A DNA stretch of 32,000 nucleotides from Candidatus Saccharimonadota bacterium. GTDB lineage: Bacteria > Patescibacteriota > Microgenomatia > UBA1406 > GWC2-37-13. The notes under the pieces were generated by a model. That model was not told the DNA's origin. It made no database searches and saw only the letters and a program-made list of their open reading frames with translations. Numbering within the stretch: the stretch's first letter is position 1; each line of letters starts with the position of its first letter. The position numbers and the translations under genes are program-made. The stretch lies in contig CP066689.1 in NCBI GenBank assembly GCA_016432445.1, positions 750,001-782,000 of the forward strand, given 5' to 3'. Below are positions 1,429-27,724 of this stretch, in pieces.

Positions 1429-2268
1429 TCAGCTTACATTCGGCCTTCCGCCAAATCTTCTGTCTCTAAAACTAAAATCAGCAAGAGATATTGCCAAATC
1501 TCTAGCTCCAAATTCTGGAAGAAAAACTTGGGGAAAACTATGTTCAGCGCCATTTATCCTCCAACCAAACTTCGAAGTCCTTTTTTCACCACCAGTTCTT
1601 ATCATCAACTCAATTTCTCCTACACCTTCAGGGTCAATAAATTTCATCGCTTCTTTTTCCAAATCTGAAGGTAACATAGAAATAACGGAATCAATCTCGC
1701 CGGATTGCTTCTTTGCTTCAATATACCTTTGAATACCTCTAAGATACTCCTGTTGCCCATCATAGTTAATGGCTACCGCTACTTTTTGACCCATATTGTT
1801 TGCTGTCACAGTCGTTGCATTATCAATTGCATTAAGCAATGCCTGATGTAGTCCAGCTCTTTCACCAAGATGAATAAACCGTCCATTGCCGGCTACTAAC
1901 TCCTCTTCCGTTGATTTTAAACTCTCTATCATAACTTCCATTATCCCTCTTATCTCTTCCACTGGACGTTTTTTTATATTATCAGGGGAAAGAGCCCAGA
2001 TGACAACCGTATTAATTGCCGGAAGAAGTCGGAAATTTCTCAATATATTTTTTAAAGCCTCTGCGCCTTGCCTATGACCTTCAGTAACAGGTAATCCATG
2101 CTCTTGAGCCCATCTACCATTGCCGTCAGCAATAACAAGAACGCTTTTTGGCAAAGTTAAACCTTCCTTGGAAACTAATACCTCTATTGGATTTTGAGCG
2201 TTGTTGATTTCTCTTACCAAATCAATTTTTGATGGAGAATAAATTCTCCCTTCGTATTTGTTCACCAT
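1429..2268 (-). CDS. uppS: Undecaprenyl-diphosphate synthase (cis-prenyltransferase)
   Basis: 279 aa. Motifs VIADGNGRWA, EGHRQG, WALSPDNIKKRPVEEI and ELMIRTGGEKRTSKF match the UPPS family signatures (DGNGRWA / FS.EN..R / IRTSGE.R.SNF). Confidence 0.85.
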   Translation of the reverse strand: MVNKYEGRIYSPSKIDLVREINNAQNPIEVLVSKEGLTLPKSVLVIADGNGRWAQEHGLPVTEGHRQGAEALKNILRNFRLLPAINTVVIWALSPDNIKKRPVEEIRGIMEVMIESLKSTEEELVAGNGRFIHLGERAGLHQALLNAIDNATTVTANNMGQKVAVAINYDGQQEYLRGIQRYIEAKKQSGEIDSVISMLPSDLEKEAMKFIDPEGVGEIELMIRTGGEKRTSKFGWRINGAEHSFPQVFLPEFGARDLAISLADFSFRDRRFGGRPNVS

Positions 2269-2949: not shown

Positions 2950-3768
2950 ATGCAGGTTCATACACTAACACCCGAAGCTCCAGGTTTAAAGGCCTTAGGC
3001 TCCATTGATGCGCGAATGACGCCTGAAGACACTGTTGAGGCTATTGAAGCTTTAGGTTTGAATGTAATTGCAGTTACCGATCACAACGCTATCGACGGCG
3101 CCGTAACTGCTTTTAATCATGCTCAAAGACGTAATTATCAAGTTGAAATTTATATTGGTGAAGAAATCAGCACCCTTGACGGCCATATTATTGCTATAGG
3201 TATTGAAACTCCTATTGATAAACAACTATCAGGTGAAGAAACCATAAGAAGAATTATCAAACAGGGAGGAAAAGTTATCATTCCTCATCCAATGAGAAAA
3301 GGAGCTTTTGGTGAAGATAAAATCGCAGCTATCCTTAATCGTCAAAATCCAGAGTTGAAAATCCATGGAGTCGAGATTTTAAATGCTAGTTATTACAATG
3401 GTTCTCCTGAAATTGCTAATGAATTTTTGGGCGTTTTTTCGCAAAAATTTAAGGGACAAATCGCTCCCATTGGTTCAAGTGATAATCATAATTATACTCC
3501 TGCTAGAGCATTAACCGGATTTACGGGAAATTTTCTAGAAGCTTTAGAACAAAAAAACACTATTGTGGTTTATCCTGATATAATCGGACAGCTTCTAATT
3601 ATTCAGGCTGCTTGGCAAAAATTTGGAGATATCATCTCAAATAAATCTTTAAGATATTTTTTGGAGGGATTAATTGCTCAAAATTCTATACCGCCTGAAT
3701 TTAATCATTTGAGCCATTTAATAGATATCCCAGATGGAGGAAAGAGACCTCATGAGGTTTTGATTTAA
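2950..3768 (+). CDS. PHP-domain (polymerase/histidinol-phosphatase-like) metal-dependent phosphoesterase
   Basis: 272 aa. N-terminal MQVHT..., VIAVTDHNAIDGA and IIPHP motifs are typical of the PHP fold. An in-frame TGA lies immediately upstream, so ATG 2950 is the start. Confidence 0.7.
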   Translation: MQVHTLTPEAPGLKALGSIDARMTPEDTVEAIEALGLNVIAVTDHNAIDGAVTAFNHAQRRNYQVEIYIGEEISTLDGHIIAIGIETPIDKQLSGEETIRRIIKQGGKVIIPHPMRKGAFGEDKIAAILNRQNPELKIHGVEILNASYYNGSPEIANEFLGVFSQKFKGQIAPIGSSDNHNYTPARALTGFTGNFLEALEQKNTIVVYPDIIGQLLIIQAAWQKFGDIISNKSLRYFLEGLIAQNSIPPEFNHLSHLIDIPDGGKRPHEVLI

Positions 3769-5849
3769 AGTATAATTCTAGCGTCGGCAACAACCAATTT
3801 TTCCTCGTTTAAAAATAGAGGATTGATATCAATTTCTTTTATCTCTTTAAAATTTTCCATTAAATATCCGATTTTCGCAGATATATCGTATAACTTACGG
3901 ATATCCACAGATTTTGATCCCCGGAATCCTTTGAATAATTTTGCTAATTTAGTTTCTTCTATCATCTGCGTAAATCGTTTTTGCGAAAAAGGAAAAACCA
4001 GATAGTTTATTTCTTTTAAAAGTTCCGCATAAATGCCTCCTAAACCAACAACGATAACTACGCCAAAATTATTATCTCTTTTAGCTCCCAAAAAAATCTC
4101 ATGGCCTTTTACCATCTGCTGTATATAAATTCCTTTGGCTTTACCGGAAGCGGTTATTTTGTTGAATACTTCTTTAAGCTCAATCTCCGATTTAATTCCT
4201 GTTATCACACCGTTTACCTCAGTTTTATGGGTAATAATATCAGAAGCGATTTTTACAACTGCTGGATATTTGATCTTAGATTTTAAGTCTTGGATCTTTG
4301 ATTCAGAATCAAGAAATAGTAAATCTAGAACCGGAATATTTAATAGTTTAAAAAAGCTCATTGAATCTCCCAAGTTAAGAAAAGGCTTACTGAAATTATT
4401 GTTTAAAATATTTTTAATTTCTTGCTCTTGAAGTTTTATTGGTAAAGAATTTGATCTTAAACCGTTCTCATCATTTTGTTCACCGTGAAACTCCTGTCTT
4501 TGCAAAATTTTGGCTAAACATTGAGATAAAAAATCATAAGTCGAGAAACTGACCATTTTTTTCTCTTCAAAAAAAACGTGAGACTGGGCTACTGATTCTT
4601 CACCCATAAAAATTGGAAATATTGGCTTATCTAAATGACTTTGGTTTTCAGCGATAACTTCGGCCGTCTCAAAAATCTGCGTATTGGCTTGAGGCGTAAG
4701 AAGAACACCAATTGATCCAATATCTTTTTCCTGCATTGTTAATCCAATGGCTTGAGAATATTCAAAAGCGCTGGCGTCACCTAAAAGATCAATCGGATTA
4801 CGGATACTTATTTTTTTGTTTTCTCCGACAGTCGACGTTAATTCTTTTTCAGTTTCGGGAGAAATGGTAACAAGGGATAACTTATTTTTAACAATATCGT
4901 CGGTAAAAAGCACCCCCACACCACCGGCATTAGATAAAACCAGCAATGCCCGGTTGGTTGGAACACGATCATAACTGTATATTTTCAATATCGTCATAAA
5001 TTCTGTAAAAGTAAAAGCCCTTATAGCTCCGTTTTGATTAAACACCGCATCATATACCTGATCATCTCCAACTAATCCTCCGGTATGAGAGATTGCCGCT
5101 TTAGAACCTTCGGTTGTTGATCCGGCTTTCAAAATAACAATAGGTTTAATCTTAGCTGCTTTATTTAGCACATCCATAAATCTTTTTCCGTTTTTTACAT
5201 CTTCAAGATACATACCGATAACTTTTGTATTGCTGTCTTTTAGTAAAAATTCGAGAGCATCGGACTCATCAATATTGGTTTTATTTCCTAAACTTATAAA
5301 ATAGGAAAAACCTAAATTTTTATGACCGGCAAAATAATCAATAATCACACTGCCTAAAGCTCCTGACTGAGAAATGAAACCAATATTGCCTGAGGGTGAA
5401 ATATGTTTTAAAAAAGTCACATTAATATTTAATAACGTATTGATAAAACCAATACAGTTTGGACCTAAAAGATTAATATTGTATTTCTTTATTTTTTCAA
5501 TCAGCTCACTCTCAATTTCAACTCCATCTTTACCGATCTCTTTAAAGCCGGCAGCGAAAATAACGATATCTTTAATTCCCAATTGACCTATTTCATCAAT
5601 AAGCGATAAAGAAACGGCTGCGGGCGTCGCCAAAACAGCTAAATCAATTTTTTCTCCAACTTCAGAAAGACTTGGGTATACTTTTTTTCCCAAAATATCC
5701 TCTGAAGCATTTTTATTCACAAAATAAATCCTGCATTTGTATCCTTGATTAATTAAGTTATTAGCAACAAGATACCCAACTTTTTTTAAGTCATGGGAGA
5801 CACCAACTACAGCAATAGAGGAGGGATTAAATAATTTTTCAAAATCCAT
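3765..5849 (-). CDS. Acetate--CoA ligase (ADP-forming), fused alpha/beta (CoA-binding + ATP-grasp)
   Basis: 694 aa. N-terminus FNPSSIAVVGVS...VYPSL..V....DLAVLATPA is the classic CoA-binding domain, followed by a succinyl-CoA-synthetase-like flavodoxin domain and a C-terminal ATP-grasp. Confidence 0.85.
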   Translation of the reverse strand: MDFEKLFNPSSIAVVGVSHDLKKVGYLVANNLINQGYKCRIYFVNKNASEDILGKKVYPSLSEVGEKIDLAVLATPAAVSLSLIDEIGQLGIKDIVIFAAGFKEIGKDGVEIESELIEKIKKYNINLLGPNCIGFINTLLNINVTFLKHISPSGNIGFISQSGALGSVIIDYFAGHKNLGFSYFISLGNKTNIDESDALEFLLKDSNTKVIGMYLEDVKNGKRFMDVLNKAAKIKPIVILKAGSTTEGSKAAISHTGGLVGDDQVYDAVFNQNGAIRAFTFTEFMTILKIYSYDRVPTNRALLVLSNAGGVGVLFTDDIVKNKLSLVTISPETEKELTSTVGENKKISIRNPIDLLGDASAFEYSQAIGLTMQEKDIGSIGVLLTPQANTQIFETAEVIAENQSHLDKPIFPIFMGEESVAQSHVFFEEKKMVSFSTYDFLSQCLAKILQRQEFHGEQNDENGLRSNSLPIKLQEQEIKNILNNNFSKPFLNLGDSMSFFKLLNIPVLDLLFLDSESKIQDLKSKIKYPAVVKIASDIITHKTEVNGVITGIKSEIELKEVFNKITASGKAKGIYIQQMVKGHEIFLGAKRDNNFGVVIVVGLGGIYAELLKEINYLVFPFSQKRFTQMIEETKLAKLFKGFRGSKSVDIRKLYDISAKIGYLMENFKEIKEIDINPLFLNEEKLVVADARIIL

Positions 5850-9226: not shown

Positions 9227-9345
9227 GTTTTATGATAGTTAACATTTTTTCAGTTATTTTTACTCAACTCAAACCCTTTAAAAGGGCGGTTGATTGATGA
9301 TTGAAAAAGTGAAAGTCACCCGCCCAAGAAAGGGCGGTTTTTTTT
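9227..9345 (+). promoter_or_regulatory. Leader/sRNA module L1 (outer helix, ACCC...GGGCGG core, intrinsic terminator)
   Basis: Outer helix UUUUUCA (9246-52)/UGAAAAA (9302-08). Inner helix UCAAC (9264-68)/GUUGA (9289-93). ACCC at 9273-76 and GGGCGG at 9284-89. Terminator CCGCCC (9320-25)/GGGCGG (9332-37) plus U8 (9338-45). The internal GGGCGG can pair instead with the terminator 5' arm. Confidence 0.5.
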
Positions 9346-9466
9346 GCCTCTGTTTACGATAACAAGCGTAAGCGCAGTTGAGTATTACAGAGGCAAATCC
9401 TGCCGGAGCGAAGTTTCGACTGCGTGGATGTAAACCACGAGGCGAACCTGAGCGAAGGAGGATTTT
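9346..9466 (+). ncRNA. Unclassified ~120-nt two-hairpin structured RNA, copy A
   Basis: Hairpin 1 is GCCUCUGU (9346-53)/ACAGAGGC (9387-94) with conserved apical loop AAGCGUAAGCGCA. Hairpin 2 is AAAUCCU(G)CC (9395-9404)/GGAGGAUUU (9457-65). It encloses GAGCGAA//GAGCGAA internal loops and CGUGG-AUGUAAA-CCACG. Copy B (11079-11197) keeps both helices through compensatory changes. Confidence 0.55.
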
Positions 9467-9492: not shown

Positions 9493-9684
9493 ATGGACCA
9501 GCTAAATAGTTTGGACATACCACATGTAGGCGCCGCTGAAAAGGCGGCAATTAGCAATTTTATTACCAAACACTTAAAAAGTGAAATAATACAGGATGTC
9601 ACTATAGAGATACACAAAGAAAAAAATAATCCTGATTCTTGCCAAAAAATCGATATTATTATCTTATTTAAAAATAACAATTGA
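9493..9684 (+). CDS. Doubtful small ORF (63 aa)
   Basis: ORF-track entry. No Shine-Dalgarno within 15 nt of the ATG. Its stop overlaps the -35 box of promoter P3. No family recognised. Confidence 0.25.
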   Translation: MDQLNSLDIPHVGAAEKAAISNFITKHLKSEIIQDVTIEIHKEKNNPDSCQKIDIIILFKNNN

Positions 9685-9715: not shown

Positions 9716-9831
9716 ATTCAAATGGAAAATAAAAATATTTTAGTCAGCCTTCCTCTTATTACCCTATATGGGGCGGGAAGTTGATTGACTAAAATATTTT
9801 TATCAATAACCCGCCGAAAGGCGGGCTTTTT
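9716..9831 (+). promoter_or_regulatory. Leader/sRNA module L3 (paralog of L1/L2)
   Basis: Outer helix AUUUUAGUCA (9737-46)/UGACUAAAAU (9786-95). Inner helix CUUCC (9749-53)/GGAAG (9776-80). ACCC at 9761-64 and GGGGCGGG at 9770-77. Terminator CCCGCC (9810-15)-GAAA-GGCGGG (9820-25) plus CUUUUU. Confidence 0.5.
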
Positions 9832-9838
9832 AGTATAT

Positions 9839-9915
9839 AGCACTTTTACAACACGAGCTAGATTGACCGGGAGAAATTAGGGGAGACAACCTCTCTTCTA
9901 TTCTCTCCTGGTCAA
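9839..9915 (+). promoter_or_regulatory. Conserved cassette 5' element, copy C (nested long hairpin)
   Basis: AGCACUUUUACAACACGAGCUAGA followed by hairpin UUGACCGGGAGA (9863-74)/UCUCCUGGUCAA (9904-15). The hairpin encloses GGGGAGA-CAACC-UCUCUUC. Nearly identical to 11246-11321, where the apical loop is replaced (CAACC vs UAAAA). Confidence 0.5.
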
Positions 9916-9954
9916 CAAGACAAGGGGAGAAATTTTAAAGGGAAGGAGGAAAAA

Positions 9955-10035
9955 ATGATGAACACTGTATCATTCACACCGCTGCAAGTCTATCAGATCA
10001 TGCGGGACGCCCGCAGAGCCATCGCGCGCAGATAA
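9955..10035 (+). CDS. Small ORF, 26 aa (MMNTVSFTPLQVYQIMRDARRAIARR)
   Basis: Found by hand; it is below the ORF-track size cutoff. Strong SD GGAAGGAGGA (9941-9950) lies 5 nt before ATG 9955. Visibly G+C-rich. No family recognised. Confidence 0.4.
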   Translation: MMNTVSFTPLQVYQIMRDARRAIARR

Positions 10036-10139
10036 CAATCTCGCGCAAACCCAATCGTACAGCGTAGTACAAAATGGGACAATGACGTCCACTCCAAACG
10101 ACAAATAAATCTAAAATAAGTAGGGAGGAAACAGTTTCT

Positions 10140-10694
10140 ATGATTACCACTTATCAGCATCTCGTCTGCGTCGCCGCCAAAGGTGATGTCCTAGCTGAAG
10201 AGATTCTCAAATACCTTAAAGGCAGTTTCAAGATCGCCGTAAGACTCATTGACCCGAACCATGAGAAAGCCGGACCGTTGGAAATAGTAATTTTCCAGCC
10301 AGAAGAAGGATGGCCGGGAAAAAATACTTTCACCTGCACGGCATTTTACCAGCTGGAAGAATCCACACCACAATGGGCAGCAGACAGCTTATTCCCTGTT
10401 GCCGTAAGGTTTCCCTTCGGCACTAACAAGATAAGGGAAAAACTATGGTACGCAACTGTTAACGTGGTTCGGCAAATAGAACTCTGGATCTGCAGTGATC
10501 GGCCGGTCGATACCACACCATGGGTAGGTTCACCAAAAGAACTCAGTGAAGACGTCAAAGGTAAAATCACAGTATGGCGCGCCCAGATAGACGGTATCAT
10601 GTCTCAAATCACAATCATGCCAATCCCTGACTTTCACCCTGTAAAGGAGCCAAAGTACAGTAGGAAAAGGAGCTTGGCCAGCTTAATCACCTAA
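10140..10694 (+). CDS. Orphan 184-aa protein with foreign-looking composition
   Basis: ORF-track entry with GGGAGGA 11 nt upstream. Many C/G-ending codons (gtc tgc gtc gcc gcc; cgc gcc cag) contrast with the A/T-ending codons of neighbouring genes. Trp-rich. No family recognised. Confidence 0.65.
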   Translation: MITTYQHLVCVAAKGDVLAEEILKYLKGSFKIAVRLIDPNHEKAGPLEIVIFQPEEGWPGKNTFTCTAFYQLEESTPQWAADSLFPVAVRFPFGTNKIREKLWYATVNVVRQIELWICSDRPVDTTPWVGSPKELSEDVKGKITVWRAQIDGIMSQITIMPIPDFHPVKEPKYSRKRSLASLIT

Positions 10695-10782
10695 AATTAA
10701 GACGGCAACGTCTCCTAAGGTCATTGACTAAAAGGCATCTCACGCATGATGCGTTTTTTGGTCTTTTGGCCTGCTAGCTCAA

Positions 10783-10848
10783 CAGTAGGGGATCAGCACC
10801 CAAATTACAGGTTTTACCTGTTTTTTGCCATGCTGATCCCCCCTACTT
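10783..10848 (+). terminator. Conserved cassette 3' element, copy E: terminator nested inside an 11-bp outer helix
   Basis: GGGGAUCAGCA (10788-98)/UGCUGAUCCCC (10831-41) encloses ACAGGU-UUU-ACCUGU plus U6 (10807-10826). Preceded by CUAGCUC (10774-80), the inverted match of GAGCUAG in element C. Confidence 0.55.
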
Positions 10849-10854
10849 TTTCAA

Positions 10855-10911
10855 GATTCAAGACTTGTGATTCGAAAATATTCATGAATCGTGAATCCTG
10901 AATCATGAATC
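10855..10911 (+). repeat. Low-complexity imperfect palindrome (GATTCA/TGAATC words)
   Basis: gattcaagacttgtgattcgaaaatattcatgaatcgtgaatcctgaatcatgaatc. The arms pair imperfectly. Same style as other intergenic hairpins in the window. Confidence 0.5.
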
Positions 10912-10915
10912 TCAG

Positions 10916-10944
10916 TTGACAAGAATCACCTGATTTGTTATATT
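10916..10944 (+). promoter_or_regulatory. Sigma70-type promoter P2
   Basis: TTGACA (10916-10921), 17 nt spacer, TATATT (10939-10944). Confidence 0.55.
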
Positions 10945-10950
10945 ACGTTT

Positions 10951-11076
10951 ATGGCAAATTTATCTACCTGGTATTGCTTTTTCTTTTTTACCCGCTTAGG
11001 CGGACTGGTAGATAATGAGATAAAACTCTAAGCCAATATTTCGAAAGAAACCAGCCGCCGCAAGGCGGTTTTTTTT
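10951..11076 (+). promoter_or_regulatory. Leader/sRNA module L2 (paralog of L1/L3)
   Basis: Outer helix UUAUCUACC (10960-68)/GGUAGAUAA (11007-15). U/C-rich tract. ACCC at 10990-93 and GGCGG at 10999-11003. Terminator CCGCC (11055-59)-GCAA-GGCGG (11064-68) plus U8. Confidence 0.5.
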
Positions 11077-11078
11077 AT

Positions 11079-11197
11079 GTGTCCGTTTACGGAAACAAGC
11101 GTAAGTGCAGTTTACGTATTACGGACACAAATCCTTCCGAAGCGAAGTTTCGACTGCGTGGATGTAAACCACGAGACGAACCTGAGCGAAGGAAGAT
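11079..11197 (+). ncRNA. Unclassified ~120-nt two-hairpin structured RNA, copy B
   Basis: GUGUCCGU (11079-86)/ACGGACAC (11121-28) replaces GCCUCUGU/ACAGAGGC of copy A, with every substituted position compensated (five of the eight pairs differ). Hairpin 2 closing helix CUUCC/GGAAG replaces CU(G)CC/GGAG. The core CGAAGUUUCGACUGCGUGGAUGUAAACCACGAG.CGAACCUGAGCGAAGGA is near-identical. Confidence 0.55.
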
Positions 11198-11231
11198 ATA
11201 TACGAATTATTTTCTTCACCCATAAGCATGG

Positions 11232-11259
11232 TTGACTGAAAATACAGCACTTTTACAAT
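11232..11259 (+). promoter_or_regulatory. Candidate promoter in front of cassette 2
   Basis: TTGACT (11232-37), 16 nt spacer, TACAAT (11254-59). The -10 lies inside the conserved element. The copy-C equivalent has TACAAC and no good -35. Confidence 0.4.
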
Positions 11260-11321
11260 ATGAGCTAGATTGACCAGGAGAAATTAGGGGAGATAAAATC
11301 TCTTCTACTCTCTCCTAGTCA
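11246..11321 (+). promoter_or_regulatory. Conserved cassette 5' element, copy D
   Basis: Aligns base-for-base with 9839-9915, with about 10 differences by eye over ~77 nt. Hairpin UUGACCAGGAGA (11270-81)/UCUCCUAGUCA (11311-21). Confidence 0.5.
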
Positions 11322-11441
11322 TGCCTCTTCTTGAGGGAATTAAATGGGAACGTACCCCAATATCGCATGTCGAAGAAATAGAACCCCAAGGTGAAATCGG
11401 ATTACCTCGTCACTGCGGCGTCTGGGGAAAATACTAACTCA

Positions 11442-11513
11442 AATCTAGCTCATTTCAAGGGGATCAGCTACCCAAATTACAGGTTTTACCTGTTTTTTAC
11501 CATGCTGATCCCC
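11442..11513 (+). terminator. Conserved cassette 3' element, copy F
   Basis: AAUCUAGCUCAU (11442-53) is the inverted repeat of AUGAGCUAGAUU (11260-71). GGGGAUCAGC (11459-68)/GCUGAUCCCC (11504-13) encloses ACAGGU-UUU-ACCUGU plus U-run (11479-11498). Confidence 0.55.
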
Positions 11514-11569
11514 TTAATACTTTTCTTTCAAAATTTTTGAGAAAGAAGTATCGCCAGTTATTAAAAAAA

Positions 11570-12742
11570 ATGGAAAAAAAATTACTTATATCTAAAGAAA
11601 CTCAACCATCGAAAACCATGGCCTATTTAGGACCAAACGGAACTTTTACAGAAATGGCTGCTGCCTTAGCTATGGATAAACTTGGAGGAGATATCCTTCC
11701 AATCCAAGCTAAAAACATTTCAGAGATCTTTAAAATGGTAGCTGATGGAACAACGGAACTAGGAATAGTACCGATTGAAAACTCTACGGATGGACCGGTT
11801 GGAGATACTTTAAAGAATCTCACCGATTTTGAGGGCACTTTTATTGGCGAAGTCGCCATTCCTATAAGTCATTCTCTATATTACCAGAGTGCCTGGCTAG
11901 TACAACACGTCGCCTCTAAAGATACTGCTTTAAGACAATGTCAAAAACATATCTCCAAATACCTCCCTGGACGCAATCTAATGAATGTCGATAGTACAGC
12001 CCTTGCTGTCCAAATGGCGGCTGCAGACCCAACCATAGCTGCTATTGGCAGCAAAATCGCCGCTGAAGCTCTTGGCCTTACTGAAAAATTTTGGCGAGTT
12101 GACGGAGTGGAGGATAATCCTTTAAATACGACTAGATTTGTAGTGATTTCCAAATCAAGAGAGGTGCACGAAGATCTGGAAAATAATAAAACTACTTTAC
12201 TTGTTCATATGAGAGATGAACCAGGAAGCTTAGCCAATTGTCTGCATGTTTTTTCCGAAAATAAAATTAATCTTACCCAAATTAAATCTTTTTTGAGAGA
12301 TGATCAGGGAGTCTCATTTCTTATATCAATTGATGGAGGAAACCATGAAGCTAGCGTTAAAAAAGCTTTTAATGATTTATATACTTACGCCAATTATCGA
12401 GTACTAGGATCATATGTAAAAGATGAAACAGAGTCTCAGGAAGATCAGGCAGATATCAATCAAATAGCCGACCAATTAAAAAGAGAGGCGGTAAATGGGA
12501 ATGGTATTGATCATGATGAAAGCGTTTTGGCTTTTACTCTTAAAGATGAAGTAGGCTCTTTGGAAAAAGTAGTCAGTATTTTTACCCAAAGGAAAATAAA
12601 TCTTACCCGTATCGATTCCATACCCACAGGAAGATTAAACGAATATGCATTCTATCTAGCTTTTAAAAACGGCATCCCCAACCATCAGGAACTGCTTGAT
12701 GAAGTAAAACTAGCCTGTAAAGAAATTGTGCAGATTGCTTAA
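11570..12742 (+). CDS. pheA: Prephenate dehydratase with two C-terminal ACT domains
   Basis: MAYLGPNGTFTEMAA, ...NTTRFVVI, and ACT-like TTLLVHMRDEPGSLANCLHVFSENKINLTQIKS. A second ACT-like segment is VLAFTLKDEVGSLEKVVSIFTQRKINLTRIDSIP. The start is uncertain: TTG 11537 in the track, ATG 11570, or ATG 11618 at MAYLG. Confidence 0.85.
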   Translation: MEKKLLISKETQPSKTMAYLGPNGTFTEMAAALAMDKLGGDILPIQAKNISEIFKMVADGTTELGIVPIENSTDGPVGDTLKNLTDFEGTFIGEVAIPISHSLYYQSAWLVQHVASKDTALRQCQKHISKYLPGRNLMNVDSTALAVQMAAADPTIAAIGSKIAAEALGLTEKFWRVDGVEDNPLNTTRFVVISKSREVHEDLENNKTTLLVHMRDEPGSLANCLHVFSENKINLTQIKSFLRDDQGVSFLISIDGGNHEASVKKAFNDLYTYANYRVLGSYVKDETESQEDQADINQIADQLKREAVNGNGIDHDESVLAFTLKDEVGSLEKVVSIFTQRKINLTRIDSIPTGRLNEYAFYLAFKNGIPNHQELLDEVKLACKEIVQIA

Positions 12743-17925: not shown

Positions 17926-18420
17926 ATGGCAAGCAGATCTTTAAACCGTGTTATTTTGATTGGAAACTTAACTCGAGATCCTGAACTTAAGTATACTCCT
18001 TCAGGCACAGCTGTTTGTACTTTTGGCGTAGCCACCAACCGCTCTTGGACAACGGCCGAAGGCCAGACAAAAGAAGAAACTCAGTTTCATCGAATTGTTT
18101 CATGGCAAAAGCTTGCAGAACTTTGCGGAAAATTATTAACTAAAGGCCGAAAAGTTTTTTTAGAAGGACGACTAACTTACCGTTCATTTACAGGAAAAGA
18201 TGGAGTACAGCGCTCAATCTCAGAGATTGTTCTTGATGACTTTATAGTTTTTAGTGATGGCAAGCGAGTTGTAGAAGCTGAAGAAACCGAAGCACACGCG
18301 CCTGAAGAAGAAGGATTAGTTACCGATGAAGAATTAAACCACGATACAGCTGCAGCAGAAGAACCAAAAGGAAAAAAAGAAAAAAGTGAAGATGTTGACC
18401 CAGACGATATTCCATTTTAA
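17926..18420 (+). CDS. ssb: Single-stranded DNA-binding protein
   Basis: LNRVILIGNLTRDPELKYTPSGTAVCTFGVATNR OB-fold. Acidic tail ending in DDIPF. Confidence 0.95.
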   Translation: MASRSLNRVILIGNLTRDPELKYTPSGTAVCTFGVATNRSWTTAEGQTKEETQFHRIVSWQKLAELCGKLLTKGRKVFLEGRLTYRSFTGKDGVQRSISEIVLDDFIVFSDGKRVVEAEETEAHAPEEEGLVTDEELNHDTAAAEEPKGKKEKSEDVDPDDIPF

Positions 18421-18421
18421 A

Positions 18422-18481
18422 AGTTATGAGTTCTGGGTTTTGAGTTTTGGGCTAAAAACCCACAACCCATAACCCATAAAC
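18422..18481 (+). repeat. GU-rich/CA-rich intra-operon hairpin (family with 27661-27724)
   Basis: AGTTATGAGTTCTGGGTTTTGAGTTTTGGGC...ACCCACAACCCATAACCCATAA. Begins with the same AGTTATGAGTT.TGGGT as the rplJ-rplL spacer element. Confidence 0.55.
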
Positions 18482-26901: not shown

Positions 26902-26992
26902 CAAAGTTCAAATATCAAATTTCGAATCATTTAGATTTTGGATTTGATTTGATATTTGGATTTTGACATTTGGATTTTGACATTTGGATTTT
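26902..26992 (+). repeat. Low-complexity hairpin plus 14-nt tandem repeat
   Basis: CAAAGUUCAAAUAUCAAAU (26902-20) pairs with AUUUGAUAUUUGGAUUUUG (26947-65). ATTTGGATTTTGAC is repeated ~2.8 times (26954-26992). Confidence 0.6.
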
Positions 26993-27033
26993 CTTTGGTA
27001 TACTAATTAGATCACCAAGACTTTAGGTTTATC

Positions 27034-27106
27034 TCGCCGAAGCTTTAGCGAAGGCGGATTTTAAAAATTTTCCTAAAATATCCCTCCGAAGCTTTAGCGA
27101 AGGGGG
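27034..27106 (+). promoter_or_regulatory. rplJ leader with twin GAA/GAA-loop hairpins (candidate L10 autoregulatory leader)
   Basis: (U)CGCC-GAA-GC-UUUA-GC-GAA-GGCG(G) (27034-57) and CCUCC-GAA-GC-UUUA-GC-GAA-GGGGG (27083-27106). The apical parts are identical and the closing helices differ. The second 3' arm (GGGGG) is the only SD-like sequence before ATG 27120. Confidence 0.45.
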
Positions 27107-27119
27107 AAAGTGAAACAAT

Positions 27120-27659
27120 ATGGTAAACACATCTAAAAAAAATCAGGTACAATCTTTCATTGATCTTATTGAAAAAAACAAAAACTTTGTAATAGTAAGC
27201 TTTGAAAAAACTCTCCACACAACTCTTGAATCTTTAAGAAAAGATCTCCGACAAAGCGGCGCCAAAATAAAAATCATCAAAAACAGTCTATTTCAAAAAG
27301 CTCTCAATAAAGAAGCTCTTAAAAATAAAAATCTGGAAGATCTTCAGAAAAAATTTAAGGAGCTCCAAAAAAACAGCGCTATATTAATGCTTGGAGACCA
27401 ATGGAATAAAGGATTAAGCGCTTTTTACAATTTTGCTAAGAAAGAAACGTTTTTATCATTTAAGATAGGTTTTCTTGATGATCAGGTTTATATGAATGAT
27501 GACCTTAAAAAAATAGCCCAGCTGCCGTCAAAAGAAGAACTTTTGGCAAAAGTTATAGGCGGATTGAAAACACCTATCTCCAATCTTAACTATGCTCTTA
27601 AATTTAATATGCAGAAGTTTGTTTACATTTTAACCGCAAAATCAAAGCAAACGAATTAA
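27120..27659 (+). CDS. rplJ: 50S ribosomal protein uL10
   Basis: 179 aa. Position directly upstream of rplL. ...FVIVSFEKTLHTTLESLRKDLRQSGAKIKIIKNSLFQKAL pattern. Confidence 0.8.
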   Translation: MVNTSKKNQVQSFIDLIEKNKNFVIVSFEKTLHTTLESLRKDLRQSGAKIKIIKNSLFQKALNKEALKNKNLEDLQKKFKELQKNSAILMLGDQWNKGLSAFYNFAKKETFLSFKIGFLDDQVYMNDDLKKIAQLPSKEELLAKVIGGLKTPISNLNYALKFNMQKFVYILTAKSKQTN

Positions 27660-27660
27660 T

Positions 27661-27724
27661 AGTTATGAGTTATGGGTGATGAGTTGTGAGTTTAACCCAA
27701 AACCCACAACCCAAAACTCATAAC
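27661..27724 (+). repeat. GU-rich/CA-rich intra-operon hairpin (family with 18422-18481)
   Basis: AGTTATGAGTTATGGGTGATGAGTTGTGAGTTT / CCCAAAACCCACAACCCAAAACTCATAAC. Pairs well as plus-strand RNA when G.U pairs are allowed. Confidence 0.55.

Follow-up and report, generated by a model that had tools for sequence, protein, structure and literature searches.

In the early region of phage T7 (R0.3-R1.3), recurrent RNase III hairpins of ~20-25 bp, built as stem, internal loop and stem, punctuate the transcript, bracket unrelated coding segments and leave protective ends on the messages. REP/BIME of E. coli, Correia/NEMIS of Neisseria and Rickettsia palindromic elements (RPEs) are co-transcribed mosaics of intergenic hairpins that may be mRNA stabilisers, terminators or RNase III sites. 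By analogy, these two groups are the closest functional parallels of the locus that we describe here. It lies in a 32,000-nucleotide window (contig CP066689.1, positions 750,001 to 782,000; ‘the window’ below is this whole stretch) whose source is an uncultured member of the candidate phyla radiation (CPR), a Candidatus Roizmanbacteria metagenome-assembled genome (MAG). The locus is an enlarged control region 5′ of pheA, a lineage-specific expansion of roughly 2.4 kb in which two units, each behind an attenuator, carry the same structured elements at their ends, here called the 5′ block and the 3′ block. We tentatively read these two ‘cassettes’ as paralogous copies of two RNA-structure modules, ‘bookends’ in untranslated regions (UTRs), that were shuffled locally among attenuator units and are confined to this locus, and we give this reading somewhat less than an even chance.

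Unit 1 runs from a leader-peptide attenuator (L3) through the 5′ stem-loop, a Shine-Dalgarno (SD) site with a 26-aa open reading frame (ORF), a second SD site with a 184-aa ORF and that ORF’s own terminator to the 3′ block. Unit 2 leads from attenuator L2 through a pair of hairpins (A/B), the 5′ stem-loop and an SD site with a 16-aa ORF to the 3′ block and, downstream of it, pheA (11570-12742, + strand), which encodes a prephenate dehydratase with two ACT domains. There are three leader-peptide attenuators in this genome (L1, L3 and L2), and an A/B pair follows two of them. The order of parts given in a first-pass annotation of the window, leader, A-B RNA, 5′ hairpin, interior and 3′ hairpin-terminator, is borne out by this anatomy.

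The 5′ block (9835-9915 in unit 1 and 11242-11321 in unit 2, both on the + strand, located by repeats and folding) begins in copy 1 with the single-stranded AGCACUUUUACAA..GAGCUAGAUU and continues as a stem-loop of 12 bp, a 3x3 internal loop and 9 bp. The gapless alignment of 9835-9914 with 11242-11321 has 89% identity, with nine differences where about ten had been counted by eye. In the fold of each copy, a 3x3 internal loop separates a lower stem from an upper stem of 9-10 bp, and the energies are -30.8 kcal/mol for copy 1 and -24.0 kcal/mol for copy 2 (z -6.0 and -3.4 versus shuffles). The nested hairpin of 12 bp plus 7 bp proposed earlier for each copy is correct as to the 12-bp lower stem of copy 1; in copy 2 the lower stem is 4+6 bp with a C.A mismatch, and the upper stem is longer than proposed. 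Nor do the copies differ in the apical loop alone, as had been stated: the differences fall at 2 of 40 paired and 7 of 37 unpaired columns and so tend to spare the stems (p 0.08). With ~21-22 bp in total and its 3x3 internal loop, the stem-loop has the geometry of phage T7 RNase III sites and is a candidate for cleavage, and in both units an SD site and ATG follow 23-41 nt 3′ of it. In contrast to T7, there are only two units here, they lie on a bacterial chromosome, the 3′ module contains a terminator and the two ends differ in sequence.

The 3′ block is a ~70-nt element that is 96-98% identical between 10787-10841 and 11458-11513, with a common CTAGCTCA starting at 10774 and 11445. Copy 1 (10774-10848, + strand) opens with CUAGCUCA and copy 2 (11442-11520, + strand) with the right arm of an inverted repeat (11442-11453); in each, a GGGGAUCAGC/GCUGAUCCCC clamp then encloses ACAGGUUUUACCUGU and U6 (terminators at 10807-10821 and 11479-11493). 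The description of this element as an outer helix around an intrinsic terminator with U6 proved correct, with a helix of 10-12 bp, and a terminator scan picks up the same structure. By their ACAGGTTTTACCTGT and T6, both 3′ blocks contain a predicted intrinsic (Rho-independent) terminator. The folds have z-scores of -7.0 and -7.7 versus shuffles, and all differences between the copies lie in loops. The 184-aa ORF has a further terminator-like hairpin with T6 near its end (10735-10760, + strand), 5′ of the 3′ block, within a 3′ UTR (10695-10773) whose fold has a z-score of -5.3.

Between the blocks lie interiors of 858 nt in unit 1 (cargo 1, 9916-10773) and 120 nt in unit 2 (cargo 2, 11322-11441) that cannot be aligned (best blastn E 0.26; Smith-Waterman scores within the shuffle range), which agrees with the first-pass annotation’s view that the content between the conserved ends is unrelated. 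That annotation had named a tandem duplication followed by a deletion, with cargo 2 alignable to part of cargo 1, as what would overturn it. Since the interiors are unrelated, a simple recent event of this kind is excluded. We rejected cargo 2 as a deletion remnant of cargo 1, as the best hint of one, the start of cargo 2 against 10695-10718, was matched in 32 of 500 shuffles. Both interiors are indeed richer in G+C than the host, with a GC of 0.46 for cargo 1 and 0.47 for cargo 2 against 0.36 for the window on average and 0.22-0.37 for leaders and spacers. The pairing of 5′ and 3′ ends that had been suggested for both units holds in unit 2, where ATGAGCTAGATT (11260-11271, + strand) and AATCTAGCTCAT are perfect inverted repeats of each other over 12 nt, a pairing that was equalled in only 3 of 1000 shuffles. 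It does not hold in unit 1, where the 7-nt match of GAGCTAG and CTAGCTC is at chance level (319 of 1000 shuffles).

Cargo 1 contains the two ORFs that had been reported for it. The 26-aa ORF MMNTVSFTPLQVYQIMRDARRAIARR (9955-10035, + strand) has a strong SD site (AAGGAGG, 7 nt before the ATG) and an Arg-rich tail (..RDARRAIARR), and the 184-aa ORF (10140-10694, + strand) belongs to a rare family and has an SD site and a G+C content at third codon positions (GC3) of 0.50, both of which are atypical for the host. The strong SD sites, the GC3 of ~0.5 and the atypical codon usage of these ORFs make cargo 1 look horizontally acquired, and we regard it, on this compositional ground, as probably of horizontal origin. 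In unit 2, the 16-aa ORF MGTYPNIACRRNRTPR (11344-11394, + strand) follows an SD-like GAGGGA and also has an Arg-rich tail. The two small SD-led ORFs are both Arg-rich at the C-terminus (RDARRAIARR and CRRNRTPR, each followed by a stop codon), their DNA is not alignable, and the peptides are basic, not hydrophobic. Host genes mostly have a GC3 of 0.18-0.35 and lack SD sites, and often have TGnTATAAT a few bases before the ATG. Such a TGnTATAAT-like box, 5-12 nt before the ATG, is seen for example at 1429-2268 (-), 3765-5849 (-), 18717, 24577 and 28241, which suggests that leaderless or very-short-leader mRNAs may be widespread in the host. Strong SD sites occur at the cargo ORFs and at a few other window genes.

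The database annotation of the 184-aa ORF, which lies on a contig of 1.10 Mb (1,103,789 bp), reads ‘hypothetical protein HYW86_04040, Candidatus Roizmanbacteria bacterium’. The ORF has no match in Pfam, PHROG, PADLOC or NCBIfam and no blastn match in phage and plasmid collections, and an exhaustive HMMER search returned a single true homologue, a 189-aa protein (P0125) with 32% identity. On the 849-nt contig of the homologue (L020), the gene is preceded by a promoter, a leader peptide (MNILNKINFFF, then stop), a terminator and an SD site, and there is no 5′ stem-loop; the Phe leader, ending in FFF and stop, occupies L020 93-226. As the family stands behind a Phe leader in another organism without the ends found here, it looks like a member of the regulon and not an arbitrary cargo. 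We infer that this orphan family belongs to a Phe-responsive regulon and would be under attenuator control in two organisms. The two AlphaFold2 models, one built on the single sequence and one on a two-sequence alignment, are unusable, with a predicted local distance difference test (pLDDT) of 31 and 43. The motif PEEGWPGKNTFTCTAF (residues ~36-98) resembles the YTPxxGWxGxDxFTY strand motif of Big_9/cadherin-like repeats, which is probably not homology. The HMMER matches to giant Big_9/cadherin-like proteins were not taken as homology either, as they can be traced to a single short PEEGWxGxxTFT-like motif whose scores add up over repeats.

The attenuators themselves are recognizable as relatives of a described class. 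As in the pheA/pheST leaders of Phe_leader (RF01859), a promoter, a short ORF (in L2 with a run of Phe codons), alternative hairpins and a terminator drive the units. In Rfam scans, which were run at the gathering score and at E<=10, the three leaders score 18-29 bits with this model (L1 26 and L3 29, the best), below its gathering score of 55 bits. L2 (10916-11078, + strand; peptide MANLSTWYCFFFFTR...) has the promoter TTGACA-17-TATATT (11 of 12) and a terminator at 11053-11070, and its peptide carries an FFFF run. L1 (9192-9345, + strand; peptide MIVNIFSVIFTQLKPFKRAVD; promoter TTGACT-17-TAGAAT; terminator 9320-9337 with T8) and L3 (9681-9834, + strand; peptide MENKNILVSLPLITLYGAGS; promoter TTGAAA-17-TAGAAT; terminator 9810-9825) are attenuator paralogues with the same architecture but without a Phe run. 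The L3 terminator abuts copy 1 of the 5′ block. The L3 peptide (9721-9783) has CTT, CCT, CTT and CTA at the places of the relatives’ Phe codons, and the L1 peptide (9232-9297) has only three Phe codons, which are scattered. The L1 and L3 attenuators may sense another amino acid or be degenerate.

We compared six loci of relatives (L005, L006, L007/L008, L024, L025 and L026), in which the closest PheA homologues are only 34-45% identical. All six have a promoter, a leader peptide ending in ..FFFTF(A/V) and stop, an alternative hairpin and a terminator, with ~15-60 nt from the terminator to the first gene, which is pheA or another gene. The gene order in L026 is infC-rpmI-rplT-leader-pheA-pheS-pheT. 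These CPR-type Phe leaders lie at L005 4860-4990, L006 4855-4965, L007 4372-4478, L024 41-180, L025 1-100 and L026 1089-1215. In alignment, L1 and L3 have an architecture like that of the relatives’ leaders, and L2 aligns with their pheA leaders, which makes it the orthologous pheA attenuator. With its FFFF run, its promoter and terminator and its orthologues in six relatives, L2 qualifies as a leader-peptide attenuator. In this genome, ~490 nt separate the L2 terminator (11076) from the pheA ATG (11570), and they are taken up by the A/B pair, the 5′ block, the 120-nt interior and the 3′ block. The A/B, 5′ and 3′ blocks are absent from the relatives’ loci by blastn and covariance models, and the addition of 5′ and 3′ blocks 3′ of the attenuator, together with the sub-threshold Rfam score, sets this locus apart from Phe_leader. 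The relatives’ Phe-leader units hold other uncharacterised genes, a 267-aa ORF (L024 192-995) and a 73-aa ORF (L025 115-336), both between leader and pheA; as these extra genes differ, the content of the regulon varies between lineages. L025 also has a 377-aa ORF (1540-2673) with weak similarity to prephenate dehydrogenase. Neither the 267-aa and 73-aa ORFs nor a 184-aa ORF downstream of pheA in L007 is related to the window ORFs.

The A/B pair occurs after L1 (9346-9463, with the variable hairpin A at 9346-9396 and the conserved hairpin B at 9397-9463; -50.2 kcal/mol, z -5.4) and after L2 (11079-11197, with A at 11079-11130 and B at 11131-11197; -47.2 kcal/mol, z -6.6), on the + strand in both places. 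The two regions (9338-9463 and 11071-11197) are 83-91% identical (87-91% within the hairpin pair), and the A stem has three compensatory double changes between the copies, from which it follows that the copies are not brand new and that the structure is under selection. A2 (11077-11130) aligns with L007 4476-4536, the post-terminator pheA 5′ UTR of a distant relative (..AGTTTACG..CGGACA; 3 of 1000 shuffles). This alignment suggests that A may be an old part of the pheA leader, to which B and the later blocks would have been added. Outside this locus, a 20-mer search found B at L009 1107-1174 (+), L010 3189-3250 (-), L011 7747-7811 (-) and L012 5769-5834 (-), with ~90% homology over 66 nt in these four other MAG contigs and covariation in the basal stem. 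The contigs are labelled Roizmanbacteria, Levyibacteriota and, in two cases, Gammaproteobacteria (low-GC and CPR-like by eye). Intergenic B always follows a non-conserved hairpin A of 40-50 nt and stands in either orientation relative to genes. In L010, the B copy at 3189-3250 lies in frame, antisense, inside an intact rseP-like ORF (2968-4152, +), where it encodes ..APLRSDSPRGLRPRSRNFASEGQ.., an insert of ~17 residues beyond the same loop of the Aquifex RseP structure 9j82. Judged by this distribution, B behaves much as Rickettsia RPEs do, like a palindromic element that spreads or is under strong constraint. We found no description of the B family in the literature on CPR/Microgenomates hairpin or structured-RNA families. 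Directly 5′ of rplJ (27120), two 35-nt mini-hairpins (..CCGAAGC-TTTA-GCGAAGG..; 27028-27062 and 27077-27111) have the basal part of B, and the 3′ arm of the second holds an SD-like GGGGGA. These may be an L10 leader; there is no match to the Rfam L10_leader.

There is a possible explanation for the arrangement in terms of local reuse of RNA modules. The ancestral layout, as the six relatives show it, is a promoter, a Phe leader peptide and a terminator followed by pheA or another first gene. The modules would act on the + strand transcript as UTR bookends. By analogy with T7, the 5′ stem-loop would free the SD-led message from the attenuator/A-B RNA, or protect it, and tune its translation; alternatively, the purine-rich SD region could be paired with the stem-loop’s pyrimidine-rich 3′ arm. 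The weak inner terminator of the 3′ block would end transcription. The GC clamp around it could close only after read-through and would then shield the 3′ end and keep the following unit insulated. A second terminator would thereby be placed between the Phe attenuator and pheA in unit 2. As to their origin, the units could go back to recombination or duplication that took place locally, at repeated motifs, and in which the interior was replaced non-homologously; no dedicated mobility machinery would be needed. At three of the four left boundaries, a block directly adjoins the T-tract of an attenuator terminator, an exact 13-mer GGCGGTTTTTTTT is common to the terminators of L1 and L2, and the locus is a mosaic in which the blocks are 83-98% identical between units whereas the adjoining leaders are ~51% identical, no closer than to other lineages. 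We read the blocks as RNA modules because it is the + strand that carries the promoters, the SD sites, the ORFs and the U-tracts.

Several observations weigh against this reading. The hairpins are about equally stable on either strand, so that a + strand RNA role rests on context and not on structure; a strand inference from G.U pairs was rejected for the same reason, the fold being about as good on one strand as on the other. Translation of the small ORFs is putative, as are RNase III cleavage and termination, all three being read from sequence features. The 3′ block follows a gene in unit 1 and precedes pheA in unit 2. Sequence conservation (96% in the 3′ block) extends to loops and single-stranded parts and is higher than a pure role in stability or termination would call for. 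Cargo 2 has a raised GC like that of cargo 1 although it is unstructured, which hints at a common foreign source. A traceless replacement of the interior would be equally expected from cassette exchange or from two insertions of a mobile element. The part of this genome in which we searched for further copies, the window and ~16 kb of flank (~8 kb beyond each end), amounts to ~48 kb or ~4% of the 1.1-Mb genome.

The latter points bear on the reading of the 5′ and 3′ blocks as the termini of a recombination cassette or of a mobile element that is not autonomous, of miniature inverted-repeat transposable element (MITE)/Correia-like or new type, with unit 2 as its empty or minimal form, unit 1 as its loaded form and the ends as recognition or homology sites. 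Further copies with other passengers would then be expected. We consider this unlikely, while giving it real weight: the ends are conserved around wholly unrelated interiors, 194 bp of unit 2 are bounded by a perfect 12-nt inverted repeat of terminal type, the G+C content of interiors and blocks exceeds that of the host, with foreign codon and SD usage in cargo 1, both units are inserted when compared with the leader-gene layout of the relatives, the hairpins are no more stable on one strand than on the other, and the adjoining B hairpin acts as a spreading palindrome (~90% across CPR MAGs, in either orientation, once in frame in the rseP-like gene). Its presence in several CPR genomes and inside a gene is a likeness to Rickettsia palindromic elements. 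Of the search for further copies that the first-pass annotation had called for, the part covering ~48 kb of this genome, related loci and public collections was carried out and returned two adjacent copies only. The ~48 kb of this genome held no third copy and the covariance models (R2 and R3) found none in 10 related loci, an 18.7-bit match to R3 at L017 7641-7701 being a chance match in coding sequence. The 5′ block had no match in the GTDB representatives, evidently a collection without the source genome. The three matches to the 3′ block in JGI metagenomes were all by chance, in high-GC soil contigs without clamp or U-tract. IMG/VR gave nothing real, as the matches of looser scans were rejected by the covariance models, and Rfam had no match to either block at the gathering score or at E<=10. 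The 12-nt repeat is not at the limits of the unit, as homology runs on for 18 nt upstream and ~65 nt downstream of it, and no target-site duplication is visible by eye; in unit 1 the inverted repeat is only 7 nt, at chance level. The absence of a recombinase, reverse transcriptase (RT) or Cas gene from the window, noted at first, was confirmed by a Pfam domain search, in which none of the window genes had a domain of the recombinase, RT, Cas or Nop type. The window also has no transposase, and there is no polymorphism across at least 12 samples. Generic REP-like ends had been the second outcome named as one that would overturn the first-pass annotation. REP/BIME-type repeats have many dispersed copies per genome, often together with a RAYT transposase; in the ~48 kb the two block copies are confined to this locus, no RAYT or transposase is in the window and the conserved sequence outruns the inverted repeat. 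The suggestions of a satellite or mobile-element scaffold and of an exchangeable-cargo platform found no positive sign. An IS200/IS605-type element is not indicated, as the 5′ and 3′ hairpins have no common sequence and the 184-aa ORF has no Y1_Tnp or OrfB match. Much like integron cassettes, the units set a variable, compositionally foreign interior beside a conserved, structured palindromic element. They differ from them in that there is no IntI in the window, conserved elements stand at both ends instead of one 3′ attC, the interiors have their own SD sites behind attenuators, and there are only two. The R′′(RYYYAAC)...R′(GTTRRRY) core sites of attC were not seen, the arms of the 3′ block being GGGGATCAGC/GCTGATCCCC, and with no integrase and a different conserved 5′ element the integron analogy was dropped. 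That the blocks are instead the standard ends of an undescribed CPR system of gene/RNA cassettes, with passengers swapped by recombination behind amino-acid-responsive attenuators and further cassettes elsewhere, strikes us as distinctly improbable. TIGR-Tas (PMC12045711) was considered and rejected, as there are no arrays and no Nop-domain protein.

Two further explanations place the function within a single unit. Unit 2 could be a dedicated cis-regulatory RNA of pheA, made up of the closing helix, the 5′ stem-loop, the interior and the terminator, which would act as a second terminator controlled by a protein or ligand; unit 1 would have co-opted a copy of its parts. This would fit its place between the attenuator and pheA, with a terminator 50 nt before the gene, the fold of the whole 275-nt unit into a closed multi-helix structure (-98.9 kcal/mol, z -7.0) and the significant closing helix. 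The interior alone, however, is no more structured than shuffles (z -0.4), no antiterminator pairing was found by eye, and the same ends enclose 858 nt with translated-looking ORFs in unit 1, unlike an aptamer. With no Rfam match to a riboswitch or conserved cis-regulatory RNA and no homologue in the relatives’ pheA leaders in addition, we find this explanation quite doubtful. Very improbable, in our judgement, is that the core is the small SD-led ORF (26 aa or 16 aa), as an Arg-rich peptide binding RNA on the hairpins, or as a toxin or regulatory upstream ORF akin to type I toxin-antitoxin (TA) systems. An SD site and ATG do stand 23-41 nt after the stem-loop in both units, Arg makes up 5 of the last 10 residues of the 26-aa and 4 of the last 8 of the 16-aa peptide, and a minus-strand promoter-like sequence (11458>11431) with a terminator-like one (11359>11345) might yield an antisense transcript covering the beginning of the 16-aa ORF. 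These antisense signals are no more than consensus matches and have no counterpart at the corresponding position of unit 1, and the peptides cannot be aligned. A likeness to type I/III TA modules, which had also been raised at first, lies in small ORFs and structured RNAs beside a ~180-aa protein behind a terminator. It breaks down in the details: type III systems have an antitoxin-like tandem repeat RNA, and Tandem Repeats Finder (TRF) finds none here, nor do Pfam and PADLOC find a ToxN/AbiQ domain, while type I toxins are hydrophobic and MMNTVSFTPLQVYQIMRDARRAIARR and MGTYPNIACRRNRTPR are basic, with no conserved antisense RNA.

The rest of the window is made up of housekeeping genes, for ribosomal proteins, HisRS, a release factor, SSB, proteases, an ABC transporter and others, and no tRNA or tmRNA was found. 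A 63-aa ORF of host-like composition (9493-9684, + strand; GC 0.31, without an SD site) occurs in unit 1 only and has a weak Pfam match to DUF3194 (E 0.0085). Just 5′ of the L2 promoter, a spacer (10849-10915, + strand) forms an imperfect hairpin of TCATGAA/TGAATC periodic repeats, and its tandem repeat (7 nt x 4.3) is the sole find of TRF. Similar sequences occur at L018 1617-1692, L005 4409-4443 and L010 ~2900-2980 and in the window at 18417-18479 and 27656-27723. Imperfect intergenic hairpins of 7-8-nt periodic repeats, of TCATGAA/TGAATC or ATGAGTT/TGGGTT type, recur 3′ of genes in this genome and on other CPR contigs, and they may be a lineage-typical class of terminators or repeats. A candidate pheA promoter of leaderless type, TTGAGA-16-TATTAA (11538-11569, by eye), ends 5 nt before the ATG; it sits 3′ of the terminator of unit 2 and might release pheA from control by the L2 attenuator. 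Three direct repeats of GGATTTTGACATTT lie at 26930-26995, 5′ of the rplJ promoter/leader region. In at least 12 samples, Logan contigs match the window base for base, break off nowhere but where 35 nt are identical between the B hairpins, and show no polymorphism of presence, absence or orientation. An invertible promoter was rejected, with no recombinase and a single orientation in all these contigs.

The locus documents leader-peptide attenuation in CPR bacteria. Additionally, it ties an orphan 184-aa family to phenylalanine control in two organisms, which makes this family a candidate for a missing step or an accessory of Phe metabolism, and its B hairpin points to an RPE-like family of selfish or functional hairpins in CPR genomes. 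If the blocks were the ends of cassettes, they would represent a new kind of modular gene exchange that puts horizontally acquired genes directly under starvation control. If they are bookends, as we tentatively prefer, a reduced CPR genome with mostly leaderless, SD-less messages would wire SD-dependent genes, one of them probably foreign, into an amino-acid attenuator regulon by re-using RNA modules.

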